64,000 nucleotides of DNA from Promethearchaeota archaeon (GTDB taxonomy: Archaea > Asgardarchaeota > Lokiarchaeia > Sigyniarchaeales > SOKP01). The stretch is from positions 51,493 to 115,492 of the forward strand of contig RDOA01000007.1 in NCBI GenBank assembly GCA_011364925.1, given 5' to 3'. This document shows, piece after piece, positions 24,109-44,506 of the stretch. Each line of letters starts with the position of its first letter. Position 1 is the stretch's first letter. Below the pieces are notes generated by a model, which did no database searches, was not told the DNA's origin, and saw only the letters and a program-made list of their open reading frames with translations. The position numbers were made by a program, and so were the translations under genes.

Positions 24109-25431
24109 TTAATTTATTTGATAAAATTCTTCTTCGAATTCAGGCTTTCCTTGATATTTTTGCATGAAGAGAAGCGGGGCTTTTTCGAGATTTTTGAAAA
24201 TGTACGATGGTACTTTGATCCCTGCTTGTTTTAGTGCATTTTGTACGTTCTCAGGTTGAGGTGGGCAACCATCAATTGCGATGAGCTCATTAATATTTGG
24301 ATGGTCTTTATTTAAATTGTATTGGCATTGACCTAGTAAGATTGTCTTATTCATTCCTTCAGAAGGCTCCATGATTTTTCCCGTAAGTATTTCAACATTA
24401 TCGAAATCTTCACCTTTCCATGCAGATTTAATTGCTGTTAAGATTACGCCATTGTAGAAACTACAGTAAGTACATATCGTTTCGTCGTACTTGGGATAAC
24501 TAATTCCCCCTATTCCTGCTTTTGCATAAGCTAATGGCAGAGTGTTGTTCTTTTCGTAGATAAAATCCCATCCATGTGGTACAGCAAGATCATCAATTCT
24601 TTCTCCTTTAACTTCAATATCCGATAAGTCAATTGGGCGATTTCTATCTTTTGCCGCTTGAACTAAATGAGGAACGGCGATAGGATCAATACCTAGAAGA
24701 TTTGAACCAACTAAATCAGCTGAGAGTATGTTAGTTGAAGCTACAATTATATCGCTTCTATGGGCTTTACCATCAAAAGTAGGACCTCGTTCTAACGTAT
24801 ATATCCCATCTATGATTGTTAACCCGGGAGGTGCTTTGTTTGCTAATTGCGACACGTTATAGTGTAGATTATATTTTGGGTCATCTCCATGAAATTTTTT
24901 ACGCGATGGGATATTGATCGTCCCTTTTAAATTTTTTATTCCTAAACTCACGACACATTGCGCGTGAGTTTTTAGAACGGGTACATCAATAAGAAAGTCC
25001 GAATGAAGCATATCTGCGTTCATTTTTGCTGTGACTCCTTCAGCTAACTCAACCTTTTCAAACTGTCTCTGAAATATGTCGTATACTTTCACTCCATATC
25101 GTTTTTTAAAGATATTATAACCAAGCTTTTCGAAAGCATCTTCGGCAGTTTCTCTATCTTTTGGATTTTCCGTAACAATTCCCTCTCCGATAGATATATC
25201 CTTAACACCTTGTTCTTTAAGAAGTATTAAAATCTCTTCCATTACAGTTGAAGTCGTAAGCATTCCCCATTTAGGAAAATCGCAATGTCTATTCCAATAA
25301 ACCAAGTTAGGTTTAATGAATACTTTCGCGTTCGAGTCAAGTTTTTCAAATCCATTTGCAAGTTCGATAGCCTTTTTTACGGAATTCTTCCCTTTCTCAT
25401 ATTTTACTATAGATACGATTGATTTACTCAT
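24109..25431 (-). CDS. DUF362 domain Fe-S protein
   Basis: VFIKPN, PVLKTH, SLGIKNLKG, IIDG; C-terminal CTYC, GQC, DGCPP. Confidence 0.85.
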   Translation of the reverse strand: MSKSIVSIVKYEKGKNSVKKAIELANGFEKLDSNAKVFIKPNLVYWNRHCDFPKWGMLTTSTVMEEILILLKEQGVKDISIGEGIVTENPKDRETAEDAFEKLGYNIFKKRYGVKVYDIFQRQFEKVELAEGVTAKMNADMLHSDFLIDVPVLKTHAQCVVSLGIKNLKGTINIPSRKKFHGDDPKYNLHYNVSQLANKAPPGLTIIDGIYTLERGPTFDGKAHRSDIIVASTNILSADLVGSNLLGIDPIAVPHLVQAAKDRNRPIDLSDIEVKGERIDDLAVPHGWDFIYEKNNTLPLAYAKAGIGGISYPKYDETICTYCSFYNGVILTAIKSAWKGEDFDNVEILTGKIMEPSEGMNKTILLGQCQYNLNKDHPNINELIAIDGCPPQPENVQNALKQAGIKVPSYIFKNLEKAPLLFMQKYQGKPEFEEEFYQIN

Positions 25432-25609
25432 ACCGATATACCATTTTCTTTTCTTTAATACTTTTGGTGAATTGAATATTTACTATTTTAAAAATTAAAT
25501 TGTTTTTAAAATGAACCTAATGACTACTTAACATCTTTTCTGAGTCTTTCTTTAGGATAGCATTGATGTTTTATTTCGTCATCATCATCTTATATAAAAA
25601 AAAAATAGA

Positions 25610-28483
25610 TTAGAAAAAGATGCCCAACTTACGAGCTCCATATTTAACGATTTCAAAAGATACAATACAGATTAACGAAATCAAAAAGCACACTAACCAA
25701 TCCAAACCTGTCAGAAACATAAACCTAAAATTTAAACCCCATTCAGCTAGCGTTACTTGAAAACCCGGAATGTACATGAGCGCGAGAAATACACTGAACA
25801 GACACCCGATTAATAAATACATAAACTTTGTGCTGTCTTCTTTAATGCTCTTAATCAACGATTTATTAGGTCTGCGAATTTGAAAAACTAAAAACGATTC
25901 ACAAAAGAATAATGTAACCATGAGCATCGTAAGAGTTTTTGCTTCTTGAGGATAGACCCATACATCTAAAAGAGGTATATATTCTGGAAAGGTAACATAA
26001 CCTCCACTTAAGCCACCAAAGTTGAGATTTTCTGGAAACACCGGATAAACTCCCGTAATTGTGGTGAAATAGACTACAAACATACTAATCGATAATAAAG
26101 CTCCAAAGACAAATAAAAGAATAACAGTTTTTTTTGAAAGAATCTCTTCTTCATCGTGAGGCTTTTGTTTCATAACATCCTTCGATGTTCTATCAAAAGT
26201 GAGAATAAGCCCCGGAAATAAGTGCAATGTGACTGAGAGGAAATACCATTGGAATAAAAATGCTTTATCTAAGAAATAGGGAAATTTTAATATTATAGAC
26301 AGAATAAACTGAACAATTCCTTCAAAAACATTAATACAAATGTAAAAGAACACTACAGCTCTTATACGCGAAAATATTCCACGCCCTTGTTTGATCCCCG
26401 TAACTATTGAATTAAATGAATCGTCGCTTATAATCATATCAGCGGCTTCTTTGCTTACATCTGTTCCTTGAATCCCCATAGCAATGCCAGCATCTGCCAT
26501 ATTAAGAGCTAAAGCATCGTTCACTCCATCACCTGTCATAGCTACGACTTGATTCGCGTCTTGATATTTTTCTATAATTTCTTGTTTATGTTCAGGAGAT
26601 ACTCTTGCAAACACTTTAATTTTGCTGAAATCATAAAACGAACTTACATCCTTTATTTCTTTTCCTTCAACCACAGTTTCATCTTCACTTTGGATTATTG
26701 AAATCTGCTTAGCAATTGCTCGAGCGGTTTTTACCGAATCTCCCGTAATCATTACAACTTCGACTCCCGCATCGTGGCATTGTTCGACGCTTTGTTTTAC
26801 ACCTTCTCTGGGAGGGTCTAAAATTGTACAAAATCCAATATATATCATATCGGATTCACACAATTCTCTACTTCTATCGTCTTCTGGAGGGAGAGCATCT
26901 AATTTTTTATAACATAAACTTAAAATCCTAAAGCCCTTTTCAGCATAAGCATCTGCAATCTTCATAATCTTTTCCTTAATCTCATCTGTGAGATCTAACT
27001 CTTGGTCTTTATATAGAACTTTTTTACATAGTGGCAATAATATCTCGCTCGCACCTTTAGTGAAGGAATAATACTTATCCTCTCGCTTATAAATTTTAGT
27101 CATCCGCTTTACTTTAGAATCAAACGGATATTCTTTAATATACTCGAAATCTTCAAGTAAATAATCTCCCATTCCTTTTTGAAAAAGTACCATTAAAGCA
27201 CCTTCGGTTGGAGAGCCAATAACGTTCCAGTTTGGAATTACTTTTCCCGATACTACAACTTCATTTTTTACCAAAGCTGAATTATTATTTAGAAAACCTG
27301 AAGTGAGGAGCAATTTGAGTTGAGGAAAATCATCAATATGCTTTACGATTACAGAATTTTTGGGATCATCTATTAAAATAATTTCTCCTTCTGGACTATA
27401 TCCGCTACCTGTAACCTTATAAGTTGAACCGTTTGTCCAAACATGTTGAATTGACATTTGGTTTTTAGTTAACGTGCCGGTTTTATCCGAACAAACTACG
27501 CTTACACGTCCAAGACTATCTACTGAAGCTAAATTTCTGATAATTACCCCATGTTGAGCCATAGCTAACACCCCAGTTAGTAGGATAATTGTAACGAGTA
27601 GGGGAATATTAATTGGAAGCAAATCTAAAGCGGAATTCAAGCTCTTTACTACATCAATAGTACCGTATGCAAAATAAAGTATGATTAATATAATAAACCA
27701 GACTCCAAAGACAATTAATCCAAGCCATTTTCCAAAGTTGTTCATTTTCTGTCGAATAGGAATATCTGAAGTACCAGCTTCTTCTAGTCCTCGCGAAATC
27801 TTTCCAATTTCTGTATCTTTTCCCGTTTTTACTGCTATTGCAGTAGCATTACCTGTCGTGACAAAAGTTCCATAAAAAACCATATTATGTTTTTCACCAA
27901 TTGAAATATCTTCTTTCTTTAGAGCAGTACCTTCTTGAGTTTTCCTTACAGGCTCTGATTCACCAGTAAGACTAGACTCATTAACTTCGAGATTAGAAGA
28001 TTGGACTAATCTGCCATCTGCTGGTACTCTATCTCCCTGTTTTAAAACTAGTAGGTCTCCTGTTACAACATTTTTAGTCGGTATGTCAGCTTTTTTTCCA
28101 TTTCGGATAACAGTAGTAGTAGGAGCAGTCATCTCTCGTAATGCGTTTAACTTTTTTGTTGCTCTATATTGCTGAATGATTGCTACAAAACAATTAAGAG
28201 CTACTATTCCCAAGGTGAGAAGGATAAAAACTAAATCTTTTTCCCCACCAAAAACTGAGGCTAGAAATAAAATTAACGCCCCAATTAAGTATATCACAAT
28301 CAACCAATTAAATAACGGAGCAAGATAGATTTTAATAAAACCTTTAGATGCTTTAGGAATTTCGTTAGGCCCGTATTGTTCTAGCCTTTTTTGGGCTTCA
28401 GCATCCGATAAACCTTTAGTAGAGTTAGTTTGAAATTTGTTGTAGATTTGCTCTAACTCCACATTAAAATAAGTCTCTTCCAT
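25610..28483 (-). CDS. P-type ATPase, P2-like scaffold with atypical M4 motif PINIP
   Basis: TGES, CSDKTGTLT, KGA, MITGD, TGDGVND; 10 TM. Confidence 0.93.
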   Translation of the reverse strand: MEETYFNVELEQIYNKFQTNSTKGLSDAEAQKRLEQYGPNEIPKASKGFIKIYLAPLFNWLIVIYLIGALILFLASVFGGEKDLVFILLTLGIVALNCFVAIIQQYRATKKLNALREMTAPTTTVIRNGKKADIPTKNVVTGDLLVLKQGDRVPADGRLVQSSNLEVNESSLTGESEPVRKTQEGTALKKEDISIGEKHNMVFYGTFVTTGNATAIAVKTGKDTEIGKISRGLEEAGTSDIPIRQKMNNFGKWLGLIVFGVWFIILIILYFAYGTIDVVKSLNSALDLLPINIPLLVTIILLTGVLAMAQHGVIIRNLASVDSLGRVSVVCSDKTGTLTKNQMSIQHVWTNGSTYKVTGSGYSPEGEIILIDDPKNSVIVKHIDDFPQLKLLLTSGFLNNNSALVKNEVVVSGKVIPNWNVIGSPTEGALMVLFQKGMGDYLLEDFEYIKEYPFDSKVKRMTKIYKREDKYYSFTKGASEILLPLCKKVLYKDQELDLTDEIKEKIMKIADAYAEKGFRILSLCYKKLDALPPEDDRSRELCESDMIYIGFCTILDPPREGVKQSVEQCHDAGVEVVMITGDSVKTARAIAKQISIIQSEDETVVEGKEIKDVSSFYDFSKIKVFARVSPEHKQEIIEKYQDANQVVAMTGDGVNDALALNMADAGIAMGIQGTDVSKEAADMIISDDSFNSIVTGIKQGRGIFSRIRAVVFFYICINVFEGIVQFILSIILKFPYFLDKAFLFQWYFLSVTLHLFPGLILTFDRTSKDVMKQKPHDEEEILSKKTVILLFVFGALLSISMFVVYFTTITGVYPVFPENLNFGGLSGGYVTFPEYIPLLDVWVYPQEAKTLTMLMVTLFFCESFLVFQIRRPNKSLIKSIKEDSTKFMYLLIGCLFSVFLALMYIPGFQVTLAEWGLNFRFMFLTGLDWLVCFLISLICIVSFEIVKYGARKLGIFF

Positions 28484-28672
28484 GAAACATTCTCCCGCGA
28501 CTATTAATGATTTTATAGTTGATTATATTAAACATTTATATTAAATTTAGAATAACATTTCTTATTTTTATTTTATAGTATTTTTGTTAATAAAATTAGA
28601 TATGAAAACAAAAAGCACCTTTACTTATTAAACCTTTAAAAGCCTTTAAATGAGATAATAACAGAGAATTAA

Positions 28673-31558
28673 TTAGAATATCAACCCTTTCGATCTGGCA
28701 ATATATTTAAAAATTTCTATCCCTAACAAACCCGGCAGTGCCAAAGCAATACAGATTAACCAATCTGTTCCACTAAGAAACAGGAAATTAATTTGAAGGT
28801 TTAGTCCAAATTGGTCGTTTATATAGTAATTTACTGGTTGTGAAAACGATACGAAAAGTACTTGTAAAGCAAGAGTGAACACGCAAATTAAAAAAAGCGC
28901 AGGACTAAATTCTTTTGTAATACTTTTAAATAAGTTTTTATTAGGACGCCGAATACTCCAGATAAACATAGTTTCAAGAATGTAAAGCGTTGTAACAAAC
29001 ATCGTTCTTGCTTTTTGCGCCAATAGTTCGGCAGGTGTAGAACCAAATGGTATATAACTAAGACCAGGATTTAGATTCCATTCGTTTAAGGGGATCATTC
29101 CTCCTAAGGTTAATTGTAGTGCTAAGACTAGTCCAATACCCATTAAAATTGCATGGATTACCAAAAGTATCCACATATTCTTATTTAACAGTTGTTCTCC
29201 GTTTCTGGGGGGTTCTTTCATTACATCTTTGGGATGTTTATCAATTACTAAAGCCAAAGCGGGTAGAGAATGCACAATCCCATAAATGTAAATATGTTGC
29301 CACTCGGAACTAAAAAGTTGAAATAATGGAACGAATTCATAGGAAAAGAAAATGACAGATTCCATTAAATTTAAACAAATAAAAAAGTAAATTATTGTGC
29401 GAATTCTCGAAAATAAGCCACGCCCGATTTTTACACCCCTTACGATAGATGTAAAATTGTCATCGCTTATGACCATATCCGCAGTTTCCTTAGCAACGTC
29501 AGTTCCAGTTATACCCATAGCTATTCCTGCATTTGCTAGTTTCAAAGCTAATGAGTCGTTAATGCCATCACCAGTCATAGCACAAATACGATTCTTTGAT
29601 TGGTATCTTTTTACTATTACTTCTTTATCAGAAGGATTCACTCGAGCAAAAACTGACACCTTTTCGAAATTTTCACCACTTAGATCCTTAATTTCGTTAC
29701 CCTCTACAACTAAATCTCCTTCTTTATAAATTCGCATCTGGGAGGCAATCGTTTTTGCTGTAGCAGGGTGATCCCCGGTGATCATTGCAATTTTAATGCC
29801 AGCAGATTCAGCTTCTTCAACTGATTCTCTAACTCCAATTCTTGGTGGGTCAAGTATCGAAACATACCCCAAGAAAACAATTTGATTTTCAATATCTGTT
29901 CTGACGAACTCTTGATTATTCTTAATTTTTCTATAACCAATAGCTAACGTTCTATACCCTTGGTTTGCTCGTATTTGAATATTTCCAATTATGGAGGTTC
30001 TAAGTTTTTCAGTTAACGGTTCTTCCGCTCCATTTATTTCAATTTGAGTGCTTATATCTAAGATTCTCTCGGGAGCTCCTTTCGAGAACGCTAAAAACTC
30101 AGAGTCATTTTCGTTAAGCTTACATACAGTTGTCATTCGTTTAAGATCAGAATTGAATGAGAATTCCTTGGAAAGAGTATACTGCTTTTTCAAATCGTAA
30201 GGAAGAAATCCTGCCTTCTCTGCTAACACGAGCAATGAAGCCTCTGTTGGGGAGCCTAAAGCTTTTCTTACGGCTAATTCTTTCGATTCTTTTAGTCGTA
30301 CTTTTACGTCTTCATATACTAATTTAGCAGTGTTATTTAACACGCTTGATTCTATAAATTTTATAAAAGTTGGATTTTCCTTTAATTCTGTAGCTTTTCC
30401 GTTCTCTTGTATCATCCCTTCGGGATCATAACCCGAACCTGAAACATGGTATTCTTTATTGTTTATCCAAAACATCTCGACAGTCATTTCGTTCTTAGTA
30501 ATAGTTCCCGTTTTATCTGAACAAATCACAGATACTCTTCCAAGGGATTCTATTGCGGACAAATTTTTAATGATAACTCCGCTCTGAGCCATATTTAGTA
30601 CCCCAGTAACAAGCACGAGGGTAGTTAATAGCGGTAAATTGATAGGCATAATTCCCATCGATCTTAAAATAGATGATATAACCGCTTCTCTAATGTGTTC
30701 GCCAACAAATAATCCTTCTAACCCTAAAACTGCAAACTTATACGCGATTAACGCAATTAGATAAAGGATAACTATTGTTCCTAAGATGTAACCTAATCGA
30801 TTCAGCTTTCTTGTGAGTGGAATTTCCTCTATGCTTCCCATTTCGTTTAATTGGTTCGAAATTTTCCCGATTTCGGTATCAAGTCCCGTCCCGGTGACTA
30901 ACGCTTTCGCTCTCCCCGTATGTACATAAGTTCCCATAAATACCATATTAATTTGCTTTTGAATGGATAAGTCTTTTTCTTCTAGTAGTTCAGTACTTTT
31001 TTCCGCTGGTTCACTTTCTCCAGTAAGAGGTGCTTCATCAACCGATAGATTCGTTAACTCGATAATTCTCGCATCTGCGCCAATTTTATCGCCTTGATCT
31101 AATAGAATGATATCTCCTGGAACGAGTTCTTTTGAAGGAATCTCAAATTGAATCCCATCTCGTAACACAACGGTTTTCAAAGCGGCAATTTGTCTGAGGG
31201 CTTCTAACGCTTTTCGAGCCCGATATTGTTGGGTAATAACTGTAATTGAATTTATAATTACTACGGTAAAAGTGATGATAGTAGAAGTTCGATCTCCGAG
31301 TAGCACAACAATACTCCCTGAAACTATCAATATTATTATTAAGAAATTAAAAATTGGTGCGAGGTATATTTTCCATAATGATTTTCTAATTTTCGGCAAT
31401 TCATTGAAGCCATACTTTTGAATTCTGCCTTCAATTTCTGATTCTTTCAATCCTTCGTTAGGACTGGTTTTGAATTGAGTGAGTAATTCGTCTAACGGCG
31501 TGAAGTAAGCTTGATTAGAAGGGTGTTGGGTTTGATTCATAGGAAGATCTACTTTCAA
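28673..31558 (-). CDS. P-type ATPase, P2-like scaffold with atypical M4 motif PINLP (paralogue)
   Basis: TGES, CSDKTGTIT, KGAPE, MITGD, TGDGIND; 10 TM. Confidence 0.93.
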   Translation of the reverse strand: MKVDLPMNQTQHPSNQAYFTPLDELLTQFKTSPNEGLKESEIEGRIQKYGFNELPKIRKSLWKIYLAPIFNFLIIILIVSGSIVVLLGDRTSTIITFTVVIINSITVITQQYRARKALEALRQIAALKTVVLRDGIQFEIPSKELVPGDIILLDQGDKIGADARIIELTNLSVDEAPLTGESEPAEKSTELLEEKDLSIQKQINMVFMGTYVHTGRAKALVTGTGLDTEIGKISNQLNEMGSIEEIPLTRKLNRLGYILGTIVILYLIALIAYKFAVLGLEGLFVGEHIREAVISSILRSMGIMPINLPLLTTLVLVTGVLNMAQSGVIIKNLSAIESLGRVSVICSDKTGTITKNEMTVEMFWINNKEYHVSGSGYDPEGMIQENGKATELKENPTFIKFIESSVLNNTAKLVYEDVKVRLKESKELAVRKALGSPTEASLLVLAEKAGFLPYDLKKQYTLSKEFSFNSDLKRMTTVCKLNENDSEFLAFSKGAPERILDISTQIEINGAEEPLTEKLRTSIIGNIQIRANQGYRTLAIGYRKIKNNQEFVRTDIENQIVFLGYVSILDPPRIGVRESVEEAESAGIKIAMITGDHPATAKTIASQMRIYKEGDLVVEGNEIKDLSGENFEKVSVFARVNPSDKEVIVKRYQSKNRICAMTGDGINDSLALKLANAGIAMGITGTDVAKETADMVISDDNFTSIVRGVKIGRGLFSRIRTIIYFFICLNLMESVIFFSYEFVPLFQLFSSEWQHIYIYGIVHSLPALALVIDKHPKDVMKEPPRNGEQLLNKNMWILLVIHAILMGIGLVLALQLTLGGMIPLNEWNLNPGLSYIPFGSTPAELLAQKARTMFVTTLYILETMFIWSIRRPNKNLFKSITKEFSPALFLICVFTLALQVLFVSFSQPVNYYINDQFGLNLQINFLFLSGTDWLICIALALPGLLGIEIFKYIARSKGLIF

Positions 31559-31644
31559 AATGAAGTGTTTTATATACTAATGAATGGTGAATTTATATTT
31601 TTAATTATGTGTCCATTCCTCTTTTTATGTAGGAATTTTAAGAA

Positions 31645-32607
31645 TTAGATGCTAAATTCTTGAGGATCTCCTAAGATGCTTACTAAGATGTGATACTTTT
31701 TCCTAATGGTGGTACTTGAAAATCTACTAGTTTGTTCGACGATACTTTGGGTAAATATTTTGCGGTTTTCAAGCGTTTGTCCTATGTAATAGATTAGTCC
31801 GGCTGTGAAAGCTTTGTAATTTAAATTTTGGATGTCTTCATACGGGATTATTCTTAAAATTTTATCGGCAGTTAGTTGCATTTCCATTTTTAAATTCGTA
31901 TAATCTTGTTCGTTTTGAAAATATTGTTTTACTCGTTCGAATTGAATGTTGTTTAAATCTTTTTGAAAGAGAATTTTAATTTTTTTCTTGATTTCTTGTT
32001 CTAAGTTTTCAAGGTTATTATACAATTTTAATCTCTTATCCGTTCTCATCAATTTTAACATCGCGTTGTTAAGCATTTTCTTATTTATTTTGTGTCCAAG
32101 TTCTTTAGCAGCGTTTATGAAATCTTCAACTCTTACATTTGTAGTTTCTTTTATTTCCATCCATATAATCGCTAAAAAGATGATAACCATGTTTTCGTAG
32201 GTTTGACGATGGTGCCTATTATACCGCAAATATTTTTCCTTTATTTCGGAGTATTTTATGTTATCAATATTCATTCCAATACCATAGCTTTTAAGCATGC
32301 TTATCGTTTTTTTTTGTTCTGTAAAGCTAGTTTGAGAGTCTTGGAACCACTTGTTTAATGTTTTTAACTGTTCGTATCGTTTTCTTGTCTCAGGATCTTG
32401 AATTGCTTTAGAATCGCCTATTCTGATCTTTCTTTCGTAATCTAATTGCGAATCTGAATAAAATTCTGGAATAGGAGCTCTTTCAAAAGCGATTTGGTCT
32501 GTCTCAGTTAACCCACAATCTTGACAAACAAAAAAACCACCTTCTTGTTTCACATTTTTATGCTCGCATTCAATATAATCTAACGAGTCTTTATTATTTT
32601 CATTCAA
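31645..32607 (-). CDS. Divergent TFIIB/TFB-like protein
   Basis: N-terminal Zn ribbon CEH..CQDCG; C-terminal cyclin-like repeat AFTAGLIY and HTH-like TQSIV..SSTTIRKKY. Confidence 0.65.
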   Translation of the reverse strand: MNENNKDSLDYIECEHKNVKQEGGFFVCQDCGLTETDQIAFERAPIPEFYSDSQLDYERKIRIGDSKAIQDPETRKRYEQLKTLNKWFQDSQTSFTEQKKTISMLKSYGIGMNIDNIKYSEIKEKYLRYNRHHRQTYENMVIIFLAIIWMEIKETTNVRVEDFINAAKELGHKINKKMLNNAMLKLMRTDKRLKLYNNLENLEQEIKKKIKILFQKDLNNIQFERVKQYFQNEQDYTNLKMEMQLTADKILRIIPYEDIQNLNYKAFTAGLIYYIGQTLENRKIFTQSIVEQTSRFSSTTIRKKYHILVSILGDPQEFSI

Positions 32608-32780
32608 GTACCTTTCAATTATTTGTATAGTTATTTTCGCAATTGAATCAAAAAAAATAGGAGTTTCTAATTTAATAACTTTAATTTTAAATAAAAAACC
32701 ATCAAATTAAATATTATATAAAAGATTCTTCAATGAATATAGAATAATAATTTTTTTTAGGAATACCGAGTTGATAAAAG

Positions 32781-33350
32781 TTGGAAAGAAAAGCCGTTCT
32801 TAAGTGGTTGAAATTTTTTAGTATTATCTTTGTTCTGCTTTCTGTAGTCGAACTCCTTGATTTAATATTATTCAGCACTATTATCAATCTAAATTTAGAT
32901 GGAACTTCGTATACTGTTGCAAATGTAATCTTTCAATCTGGCTTTATGGCAGTTCACGCCACGCTTTTATGGGTCTTTTTATTATTCGTTATTTGTGCTT
33001 ATATTGCTATATCTTTTTCAATATTCACTATCGCTAAAAAAGACTCCATTGAAAATCATACTCTTGCTAAATTTTTACTATTGATTGGATTATTTCTCAT
33101 AATTGGTGGGTTTATAAAAACAAATTTTATGACACTATTAGGTAATAGCCATATCAATACAGGCATTACAACCACTACCCTTCAAAATGCGCTATATAAT
33201 CCCGCTATTACTCCATTATTTGGAGCGATAATGTGGATCTATTTTACGGTGGTTGTAAGCTTTTTCTTGTTTTCTGGATTGGTCTTTGGAGGAGTAGGTC
33301 TTAGATGGATGCTTATTATTCAAGAAGAAAAAAAACACAATCAAATTTAA
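32781..33350 (+). CDS. Hypothetical membrane protein (about 4 TM)
   Basis: Four hydrophobic segments; TTG start. Confidence 0.7.
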   Translation: MERKAVLKWLKFFSIIFVLLSVVELLDLILFSTIINLNLDGTSYTVANVIFQSGFMAVHATLLWVFLLFVICAYIAISFSIFTIAKKDSIENHTLAKFLLLIGLFLIIGGFIKTNFMTLLGNSHINTGITTTTLQNALYNPAITPLFGAIMWIYFTVVVSFFLFSGLVFGGVGLRWMLIIQEEKKHNQI

Positions 33351-33435
33351 AATCTGACTTTTAGTTCTTTCATTTAGGCAGATAACAAAAAATAAAACAA
33401 AAAAAGAAAAATGAAATGACCATTTATTGATCAAT

Positions 33436-34371
33436 CTAAAGTCTAGATTTAATTTGTTTTGCCCTAGATCTTAGTGTTACTTCTGTAATCTTGGCAACAT
33501 CTGCTACAAGAGATTGCGTTTTTCGAATCGAACCATCTTTCGCTGCAATGTAAATACATGCTGCAGCTAATCCTTTTGGATCTTTTCCTGTTCGCGCTAA
33601 CCCGTTCTGAGACGCAGTTCTTAACATGTCGATCGCTTTCTTCTGAACATTCATTGGAAGGTTTAATTCGTTCCCAAACCTAAAAACTAAACTTTCAGCG
33701 GTAATAGGCTGATATCGCAAACCTAACTGAGGCAAAACCTCTCTTATAATCATAGCTAAACTTCTATGGACAGTTCTCCTAGGAGTTAAAGAAGCTTCAC
33801 ATACCTCATCTAATAATCGTGGGAAATCGTGAACCCTAATCGCAGCGTATAAAGATCCTGCAATAAAGCCATTAATTGATCTTCCCATGGTTAACTTCTT
33901 TTTAGCAACAATACTATATACTTTCCAGGCTGTTTCTGAAATGTATTCAGGAATGTTTAACTTTGAAGTTAACATTTTTAATTTGGGTTTAGCTTCCCAA
34001 AAGTTCCTTTCTATACTTGAAATTAACGAGTTTTGAATTTTTGATAGACGTGAAAATAATGCTTGGTCTTTTGGACCTATTGATTTACCTTTCGAATCGG
34101 TCTTTGTAGTTGGGAGCATTGTCCTTGGGCCAAAATCTCTCCATCTTGGTTCTGTTCGGCGACGATTCTGAATCTCCTCAATAGTGTAAGCTCTCCTTTC
34201 ATTTCCTACAAACGTTCGATCCGCAATCATACCGCAATTTAAGCAAACTTCATTACCATCGCGTTCTTCGATGTTAGGATTAGAGCAACAATCAACAAGT
34301 TTAGCAGACGGTAAACTGTCTTGATCAATATGGTTACTTTTGATAAGATCACGGTAATTACTATTCATCAT
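33436..34371 (-). CDS. tfb: Transcription initiation factor IIB
   Basis: Zn ribbon CC..VCLNCG, ERRAY, ERN, GRS..AGSLYAAIR, GKDPKGLAAACIY, TQ..VA..ITEVTLRSR. Confidence 0.93.
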   Translation of the reverse strand: MMNSNYRDLIKSNHIDQDSLPSAKLVDCCSNPNIEERDGNEVCLNCGMIADRTFVGNERRAYTIEEIQNRRRTEPRWRDFGPRTMLPTTKTDSKGKSIGPKDQALFSRLSKIQNSLISSIERNFWEAKPKLKMLTSKLNIPEYISETAWKVYSIVAKKKLTMGRSINGFIAGSLYAAIRVHDFPRLLDEVCEASLTPRRTVHRSLAMIIREVLPQLGLRYQPITAESLVFRFGNELNLPMNVQKKAIDMLRTASQNGLARTGKDPKGLAAACIYIAAKDGSIRKTQSLVADVAKITEVTLRSRAKQIKSRL

Positions 34372-43394: not shown

Positions 43395-43949
43395 TTATAA
43401 TATAAATATGTGGATGAATATTATTATTAATAAAGGTGTTAAAAAGTCTGATAAAGAGGTTATAATAGGAATTAAATAATTATTGGGATCTTTTCCATTT
43501 CTAAATAATAATATGGAACCGATAAATAAAAATACAAACATAACTCCAAACAGAATTAAAACTGTAACATTTAAAATTGATATAATCAAAAGGGGATTAA
43601 CTATTTCTATTCCAGTAACAATTCCTATTATATATCCTATGCTGATTAATGCTGCAAGACTTAATAAAATTGTTATCAATAGTCCATAAAAATCTTGTTT
43701 CAATCGATTGGATGTCTTAATTTTTGGAGATAAAGTCCCTAAGTACAAGTGGGAAGTAAGTCGAGATACTAGCACCGTTGAGATGTTACCCGTTAGTGAA
43801 TTTAAAGAGGGTAATACCAATAAAATTATCGGAAAACTTGCTAATATCTGCTCATTACTAGATAACAAGGTACCTGAAAAGAGTCCCATTACTGAACTAA
43901 TTAAAACGACGATAATTGACTCTTTAAAGATTTTTTTAAAGTAATCCAT
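43395..43949 (-). CDS. MgtE integral-membrane-domain protein (half 2)
   Basis: PSLNSLTGN..SRLTSHLYLG, KDPNNYLIPIITSLSD; start taken at MDYF. Confidence 0.85.
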   Translation of the reverse strand: MDYFKKIFKESIIVVLISSVMGLFSGTLLSSNEQILASFPIILLVLPSLNSLTGNISTVLVSRLTSHLYLGTLSPKIKTSNRLKQDFYGLLITILLSLAALISIGYIIGIVTGIEIVNPLLIISILNVTVLILFGVMFVFLFIGSILLFRNGKDPNNYLIPIITSLSDFLTPLLIIIFIHIFIL

Positions 43950-43951
43950 TA

Positions 43952-44506
43952 TTATGGAACCCCCAGCATGATTATTGTTAAGTAGAAACAAATGATTGTA
44001 AAAAAATCGTCAATTGCCGTCATCATGGGATTAACTACATTATTTGGATCTAAACCGCGTTTAAATGCGATAAAATTTAAAAGAGTTGAGCACGGGATTG
44101 AAATCGATAAAGTGAAAACGATTGAAACAACCGGAATTGCAATTAATAACCCGATATTGAAAATATAAAGTTTAACTAGTAAAAAGTTCATTAAAATGCT
44201 GAATATACCGATGGCAAACGCAGTTAAAAGCGATAACAAGAAGGTAGCCATGACATTTTCAAACCATGATTTAACATTAAATTCTCCAATGATAAAGTCT
44301 CGTGAGGTTCGAGCTATAAAAGGGCCACTCAAATTTCCTCTAAGCGACAACAGGGCAGGAATAATTAGAATTAGTAAAATAAAACTCTTAAAGGAGATGA
44401 TTAAAAGAGATAGCACAATCCCAGCAAGGATATCACCCACAATGGAAACCATTTCAGACGGAAAGTTTTCTTTAATGATTTTACCTTTAGAATCTTGTGC
44501 TTCCAT
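43952..44506 (-). CDS. MgtE integral-membrane-domain protein (half 1)
   Basis: PALLSLRGN, GLDPNNVVNPMMTAIDD. Confidence 0.85.
   Translation of the reverse strand: MEAQDSKGKIIKENFPSEMVSIVGDILAGIVLSLLIISFKSFILLILIIPALLSLRGNLSGPFIARTSRDFIIGEFNVKSWFENVMATFLLSLLTAFAIGIFSILMNFLLVKLYIFNIGLLIAIPVVSIVFTLSISIPCSTLLNFIAFKRGLDPNNVVNPMMTAIDDFFTIICFYLTIIMLGVP

Follow-up and report, generated by a model that had tools for sequence, protein, structure and literature searches.

Two adjacent genes on the minus strand of a 64,000-nucleotide stretch of contig RDOA01000007.1 from a Promethearchaeota archaeon (hereafter the window, whose positions are used for all coordinates unless a contig of the genome is named) encode P-type ATPases, pump A (25610-28483) and pump B (28673-31558), which belong to a genuine, strongly selected, and apparently undescribed subfamily of P2-type pumps. 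This subfamily is deep and conserved, is apparently near-universal in the closest archaeal relatives of eukaryotes, and carries an invariant histidine in place of a key aspartate of the transport site. Its members probably transport a small inorganic cation other than Ca2+, and not a lipid, with K+ uptake as the leading candidate, which is put forward tentatively.

Pump A is an open reading frame of 957 residues with PINIP in the fourth membrane helix (M4) and His754 in the sixth (M6), and pump B is a paralogue of 961 residues when read from TTG 31558, with PINLP in M4 and His763 in M6. The genes lie head to tail, both reading frames are intact, and the proteins are 40% identical over their full length. 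Five Pfam domains (Cation_ATPase_N, E1-E2_ATPase, Cation_ATPase, Hydrolase, and Cation_ATPase_C) exceed their cut-offs in A and in B, and the profile of the P-type superfamily (TIGR01494) gives 299 bits for A and 262 for B versus a cut-off of 62. The initial annotation of this DNA had described the cytoplasmic motifs of both paralogues as intact and of the P2 type, and this was confirmed by translation: TGES of the A-domain (27956-27967 in A, 31013-31024 in B), the phosphorylation motif CSDKTGT (27473-27493 and 30503-30523), KGA, DPPR, MITGD, and TGDG[VI]ND are present in both proteins. The hinge (TGDGVND at 26516-26536 in A; 29555-29575 in B) is followed by a clade-specific AL where AP is usual. 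The AF2 model of A has ten membrane helices, M1-M10 (predicted local distance difference test 82.7, predicted template modelling score 0.76), and its 50 best matches in the PDB, obtained with Foldseek, are all P2 pumps (SPCA1, SERCA, H,K-ATPase, Na,K-ATPase, and LMCA1). A and B are thus likely to be catalytically competent P-type ATPases of the P2, Ca-pump-like type.

The register of the transport site was fixed by a HMMER alignment to the Listeria Ca2+-ATPase LMCA1 (6zhf, E = 2e-116), which is the best sequence match in the PDB. In this alignment the M4 glutamate of LMCA1 stands opposite isoleucine and the M6 sequence N..ND opposite S..LH, with asparagine replaced by serine and aspartate by histidine. 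In SERCA numbering, PINIP of A (27602-27616) places isoleucine at the position of E309 and asparagine at that of G310, and the corresponding motif of B is PINLP (30632-30646). M6 reads SVTLH in A (26222-26236), where His754 (26222-26224) takes the place of D800, serine that of N796, and leucine that of T799; in B it reads YGIVH (29270-29284), with His763 (29270-29272), tyrosine at the N796 position, and valine at the T799 position. D800 is the residue common to both Ca2+ sites of SERCA, and the P2A set of Ca2+ ligands is broken in both pumps, given that E309, N796, D800, and T799 have become I, S/Y, H, and L/V. The pair N768 and E771 of M5 is retained, as N718 and E721 of INVFE in A (26321-26335) and in LNLME of B (29360-29374), and so is E908 of M8, which corresponds to Glu862 in FFCES of A (25895-25909) and to Glu862 in YILET of B (28970-28984). 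The M4 motifs, the M6 substitutions with their histidine, and the retained residues of M5 and M8 are therefore as the initial annotation had described them. In the M1-M2 entry region of A (28160-28327), Pro56 occupies the place of the canonical glutamine and Gln105 that of the canonical glutamate (SERCA E109), with Asn59 between them. The AF2 model of A shows helix breaks at residues 289-291 (P-I-N of M4) and 753-755 (L-H-L of M6). These breaks mark the two stretches of P2 pumps where the helix unwinds to make the ion sites, and they are where Asn292 and His754 are located.

It is clear that the signature is not a chance occurrence, because the M4 asparagine and the M6 histidine covary across 380 relatives aligned with MAFFT. 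The two residues occur together in 170 of the 380 sequences and glycine occurs with aspartate in 186, with no case (0/380) of asparagine with aspartate or of glycine with histidine; two histidine-bearing outliers have methionine or serine at the M4 position. The signature-bearing subset consists of 172 sequences and is weighted towards orthologues of A, and the presence of histidine in 172/172 is largely an effect of how the set was selected. Within this subset the retained ligands are nearly constant (E771 in 172/172, E908 in 170/172, and N768 in 165/172), and the positions of N796 and T799 vary freely. The initial annotation had stressed isoleucine at the position of E309. The residue found there is a hydrophobic one in every case (I, L, V, F, or W), but the conserved feature of M4 is the asparagine that follows it (P-[ILVFW]-N-[ILF]-P) and not the isoleucine itself. 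Outside the core of the site, the M1 glutamine is replaced by proline in 167/172 sequences (Q56>P), the M2 glutamate at the position of SERCA E109 by glutamine in 163/172, and the hinge proline of GDGVNDAP by leucine in 165/172. The acidic residues of the M1/M2 entry are neutralized in the clade (E109>Q, D59>N), and the loop between M7 and M8 is longer, with a conserved proline, asparagine, and lysine. The 32 representatives taken at 50% identity share this residue pattern. When 1.84 billion cluster representatives were searched with HMMER, approximately 35-40 full-length clusters (50% identity) with the signature were retrieved, the clade amounting to approximately 38, and the matches ranked next are ordinary PEGLP / N..TD proteins; the ESM Atlas returned generic P-type clusters only. 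These observations support the proposal that the substitutions are under selection and that A and B would define a distinct deep subfamily that lacks a characterized member, as had been suggested from the two paralogues.

The phylogenetic position of the clade was explored with a FastTree tree of 133 rows and a quick IQ-TREE tree of 68 rows (LG+G4), both rooted on the P1B pumps of the same genome and including, besides E. coli MgtA, the canonical PEGL pump and the P3A-like pumps of that genome. The signature clade is monophyletic, with a support of 100 in the first tree and 99 in the second, and the P3-like and P1B pumps of the genome branch apart from it. In both trees, which were built without eukaryotic sequences or named P2A-D, P4, and P5 references, it is the sister of the sampled prokaryotic PEGLP set (support of 90-97 for that set) and is not nested within it. 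The basal subclades read AVAAIP-[WFV]-N-F-P and the crown members MPINIPLL. The basal form AVAAIP-x-N-F-P differs from AVAAIPEGLP by one small step. Because A and B each belong to a separate deep subclade, the duplication that gave rise to them is old.

The family profiles place both proteins closest to the P2 pumps and below the cut-off of every family. Pump A and pump B score 476 and 445 bits with the PMR1 profile (TIGR01522, cut-off 798), 444 and 445 with that of SERCA (TIGR01116, 703), 446 and 407 with the ENA-type or P2D profile (TIGR01523, 645), and 398 and 352 with P2C (TIGR01106, 946), followed by 354 and 329 with P3A (TIGR01647, 615), 254 and 231 with P5 (TIGR01657, 618), and 108 and 109 with P4 (TIGR01652, 431). 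Pump A also gives 377 bits with the P2B and 304 bits with the P3B profile of NCBIfam, both below cut-off. The CPx/SPC marker of P1B pumps is absent from M4 of A and B, as is any PP motif of the P5 type (PP[DEAV]xP), and M6 has neither of the acidic ligands, aspartate or glutamate, that are found in P2C pumps. The initial annotation was also right in that neither P3A nor P4 fits these proteins, given the profile scores, the M6 histidine, the presence of TGES, and the lack of an M5 lysine. Taken with the trees, this makes it probable that the clade is an old, Asgard-wide sister of the prokaryotic pumps that resemble PEGLP Ca2+-ATPases.

Nesting within a characterized prokaryotic clade with the same motifs was looked for in the literature and in the trees and was not found. 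Literature searches with the motif words PINIP, PINLP, PLNIP, and PFNFP returned unrelated matches only, and those that combined P-type ATPase with Asgard, FUPA, or Lokiarchaeota gave no description of the signature or the clade. The family is likewise absent from a review of 2023 on open questions in the field (PMC10654040), which states that P4 and P5 pumps have no prokaryotic relatives and describes the prokaryotic P3A pumps as uncharacterized.

The distribution across Asgard archaea was surveyed, and a match at E<=1e-150 was found in 308 of 400 genomes of the GTDB phylum of the window, including 76 of the 90 of high quality, although matches near this threshold may be canonical pumps. There are two matches per genome in the order of the window, for which the tandem pair is typical, and mostly one elsewhere. 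Among the close homologues (71-98% identical), most of which are unnamed, those with a stated organism come from Loki-, Thor-, Hod-, Hermod-, or Promethearchaeota, and named cluster representatives add Hel- and Odinarchaeota; databases annotate these proteins as Ca2+-transporting or cation-transporting ATPases. The distribution is apparently near-universal and vertical in Asgard. Because most Asgard lineages outside the order of the window have a single copy, the idea of an obligate heterodimer of A and B is unnecessary. One cluster, P0136 (PINIV), carries the submitter label Korarchaeota (GCA_012974725.1 and GCA_011774645.1), a label that is unverified; its gene adjoins an Arf/Ras-type small GTPase gene, and the nearest relatives found, at 57% identity, are in genomes of the Asgard phylum. 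For these metagenome-assembled genomes, either the bin is Asgard and wrongly labelled or the gene has been transferred beyond Asgard. A scan of contigs for C[ST]DKTGT and GDG[VI]ND gave, among the matches listed, only ordinary P2A-like genes at approximately 30% identity, these patterns being generic and uninformative on the presence of the clade outside Asgard.

The residues of the site suggest how such a pump would work. A and B would follow an ordinary E1/E2 phosphoenzyme cycle in which Ca2+ site II has been dismantled, with the M4 glutamate turned hydrophobic, the asparagine and threonine positions of M6 released from constraint, and the M1/M2 entry neutralized. A fixed pocket would replace it, made of the M4 asparagine, the M5 asparagine and glutamate, the M6 histidine, and the M8 glutamate. 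Two of the four carboxylates of the site are lost in the clade, and such a pocket would fit a single small cation or protons; it would suit neither two Ca2+ ions nor the head group of a lipid that travels through a groove. It is on these grounds that a small inorganic cation other than Ca2+ is considered the likely substrate. The same genome also encodes a canonical pump of the PEGL/N..D type, two pumps that are P3A-like, and two P1B pumps of the CPC type, and therefore A and B have an extra function and are not a diverged replacement of the Ca2+ pump.

The case for K+ comes from what the genome lacks. The genome is 100% complete and was searched with transporter profiles, for which control genomes matched as expected. 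No match to TrkH, Kup, KdpA, the K-channel pore domain Ion_trans_2, or the voltage-gated channel domain Ion_trans was found in it. In the samples of the phylum, TrkH was found in 0/400 genomes, Kup in 0/261, and KdpA in 0/261, and Ion_trans_2 occurs in 28 of 261. A census of Asgard transporters (PMC7997004) never mentions Trk, Kup, or Kdp, and has no K+ system in two of its five proteomes. The standard systems thus leave K+ uptake unaccounted for in most Asgard genomes. K+ is favored because the genome and the sampled phylum are without these systems, which makes a near-universal orphan pump a natural candidate. Uptake could take place in exchange for H+, with the M6 histidine serving as the proton carrier or as a built-in charge. 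That the Asgard phylum accumulates K+ with this P2-type subfamily through a histidine-containing site, possibly as an H+/K+ exchanger, is given a probability of roughly one in four.

Several points weigh against K+. Imidazole is a poor K+ ligand, and the clade does not conserve the site at which Na,K-ATPase has its K+ ligand D804 (SERCA N796). The Asgard families that have no such pump (f18, f20, f24, and f25) are also without Trk, Kup, Kdp, and channels, and therefore another route for K+ must exist; moreover, families f15 and f28 have both the pump and a channel, and in the sampled families the pump and the K+ systems showed no phyletic complementarity. The negative results on K+ systems cover Trk, Kup, Kdp, and channels, KimA-type and other importer families not having been searched. 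The genome has one CPA antiporter, and either this or a protein with two transmembrane helices and an RCK domain could carry K+. The geometry of the pocket is deduced from the alignment to SERCA and LMCA1, and the ion and the direction of transport are likewise deductions; the position of the clade with respect to P2A-D, P4, and P5 is taken from the profile scores and the fold search.

The RCK protein (C23:45967-47127, a contig of the genome; 387 residues) has two N-terminal transmembrane helices followed by a TrkA_N/RCK domain, a layout that resembles MthK. In its pore loop, EKVGDF, a GYG filter is missing, and the Pfam channel model gives no match; the protein could be an atypical cation channel. 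Membrane open reading frames that match T[IV]G[FY]G were also considered as candidates for a GYG-type filter and were discarded, given that those with a Pfam match are ABC-2 permeases.

A transition metal (Fe2+, Mn2+, Zn2+, Co2+, or Ni2+) is a possible substrate, though a doubtful one. In this case the histidine, two glutamates, and two asparagines would form one site for a divalent metal, which is typical first-shell chemistry, and the residues of the pocket are invariant. A transmembrane histidine marks specificity for transition metals in P1B-ATPases (CPH, and SPC plus HEGT in P1B-4), and one gene of a basal clade lies near a VIT1 gene and a gene for a protein with a faint HTH_5 match. Nonetheless, FeoB, two ZIP, one CDF, and two P1B pumps are already encoded in the genome, neutralized entry residues (E109>Q, D59>N) are unexpected for a divalent ion, and no metal-related gene context is conserved. 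The near-universal, conserved, and apparently vertical distribution also looks more like core ion homeostasis than like the handling of trace metals.

Proton pumping is unlikely. Here the M6 histidine would carry the proton in place of the M6 aspartate of P3A pumps, partnered by the glutamates of M5 and M8, and no metal would be bound. Histidine titrates near neutral pH, two of the four acidic residues of the site are lost, and the entry funnel is neutralized. A hydrophobic residue at the position of E309 is also shared with P3A pumps; the P3A-like genes of the genome (C70:4233-6332 and C38:12080-14071, approximately 830 residues) read PVALP and PAALP in M4 and LND[LI]P in M6. These two pumps nevertheless keep the M6 aspartate, the P3A score of A and B (329-354 bits) is far below 615, and the conserved M4 asparagine together with the retained N..E and glutamate suggests a coordinated ion. 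We know of no P-type pump that uses histidine as a proton carrier in this way.

A residual Ca2+ or Mg2+ pump that uses only a pocket like site I is very unlikely. It would account for the retention of the site I ligands N768, E771, and E908, and both the closest relatives, which are Ca2+ pumps, and the database annotation as Ca2+-transporting ATPase point in this direction. The D800 position is, however, never aspartate or glutamate in the signature set, E309, N796, and T799 are lost, every equivalog cut-off is missed, and a canonical PEGL/N..D pump is encoded separately in the genome, together with CorA and two open reading frames with an MgtE domain. On the minus strand of the window, two adjacent short open reading frames (43422-43811 and 43979-44362, in open frames of 204 and 185 residues) match the MgtE membrane domain only, with 53 and 62 bits; the pair is MgtE-like, split or minimal, and lacks the cytoplasmic domains that are usual in MgtE.

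The initial annotation had considered a flippase-like function, with a possible bearing on the origin of P4 pumps; that these pumps move a bulky substrate (a lipid, a polyamine, or a peptide) and are a prokaryotic forerunner of P4 or P5 is highly improbable, because what recommends it, namely a hydrophobic residue at the E309 position as in PISL of P4, an Asgard host, and a longer M7-M8 loop with conserved residues, is outweighed by P4 and P5 scores (108-109 and 231-254 bits) far below cut-off and below the 407-476 bits of the best P2 profiles, by TGES in place of DGET, the absence of an M5 lysine and of PPxxP, the P2 identity of all 50 top fold matches, the place of the clade beside the PEGLP pumps in the trees, the closeness of the basal AVAAIP-x-N-F-P to AVAAIPEGLP, and a buried polar pocket that is conserved as in ion pumps. 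The P4 profile found nothing over its cut-off in the whole genome. A tempting lead is thereby removed, in that the genes of A and B do not bear on the origin of the eukaryotic lipid flippases.

The start of B is probably ATG 31540, which gives a protein of 955 residues. This start is favored because the TATATAAAA box at 31568-31576, approximately 32 nt upstream of ATG 31540, is too close to TTG 31558. The spacer between B and A (28484-28672, minus strand) is 189 bp long and AT-rich, and contains TATA-like boxes and, before the ATG of A, GGGAGA, as read by eye. From the boxes in the spacer and upstream of B, each gene is likely to have its own promoter and to be transcribed independently. A scan for sigma-70 promoters and terminators gave counts at the level of shuffled sequence, the sigma-70 method not being relevant to archaea, and an Rfam scan of 25000-33500 revealed no riboswitch and no other RNA family.

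Directly downstream of A lies the gene for a DUF362 protein of 440 residues (24109-25431, minus strand). Upstream of B, an open reading frame of 320 residues (31645-32607, minus strand) has an N-terminal CxH...CxxC zinc ribbon and no Pfam match, and sits between pump B and a bona fide TFIIB-repeat gene (33436-34371, minus strand); it is possibly a TFB paralogue that has diverged. Another genus (locus L016) has the TFB-like gene, B, A, and DUF362 in the same order, and there too such an open reading frame stands between the TFIIB-repeat gene and pump B and the DUF362 gene downstream of the pump pair is followed by a second one of 703 residues. Elsewhere in the clade the pump gene is solitary amid unrelated housekeeping genes, which gives no clue to the substrate. 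Among the PEGLP-type homologues, five proteins (P0158, P0216, P0240, P0248, and P0264) are 1500-1700 residues long, and in them the ATPase takes up the C-terminal half only, preceded by 650-780 residues of N-terminal extension.

The P-type subfamilies are told apart by the transport site, and to our knowledge every new one so far has brought a new substrate or mechanism. If the K+ proposal is true, a basic gap in Asgard physiology would be explained, with consequences for cultivation, and the subfamily would stand as a functionally new class of P-type pumps with a histidine-based mechanism, an archaeal analogue of the P2C-driven K+ accumulation of eukaryotes. If the substrate is instead a metal or the proton, the chemistry of P2 pumps would still be extended.

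Among the known families, the P2A pumps (LMCA1, SPCA1/PMR1, and SERCA) are the closest, providing the best sequence, profile, and fold matches to A and B and sharing with them the domains, the cytoplasmic motifs, ten transmembrane helices, the N..E of M5, and the M8 glutamate. They differ in having PEGLP where the clade has P-hydrophobic-N-x-P, and N..TD in M6 where the clade has x..xH, and the clade is further set apart by M1 Gln>Pro, M2 Glu>Gln, the hinge AP>AL, and the longer M7-M8 loop. The P2C pumps (H+,K+- and Na+,K+-ATPase) are also high-ranking matches in fold and sequence, and share the M5 N..E and a long M7-M8 loop; unlike them, A and B have no aspartate or glutamate ligands in M6, and no beta-subunit gene is evident in the genome. 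The gastric H+,K+ pump has a built-in positive charge, Lys791, next to acidic residues of its site, and the M6 histidine could imitate this role.

The remaining families are more distant. P3A H+-ATPases share a non-acidic residue at the position of E309, but they need the M6 aspartate that is histidine in A and B, have a different N-terminus, and form a separate clade in the trees. The Co/Zn/Fe pumps of the P1B-4 type (SPC plus HEGT), in which histidine and glutamate within the membrane are the likely ligands, offer an analogy for the M6 histidine, while their topology is different, A and B are without CPx/SPC, and the clades are distant. With the P4 flippases the only shared feature is the hydrophobic residue after the M4 proline; these have DGET where A and B have TGES, and a lysine in M5 where A and B have asparagine and glutamate, and none of them is among the 50 top fold matches.

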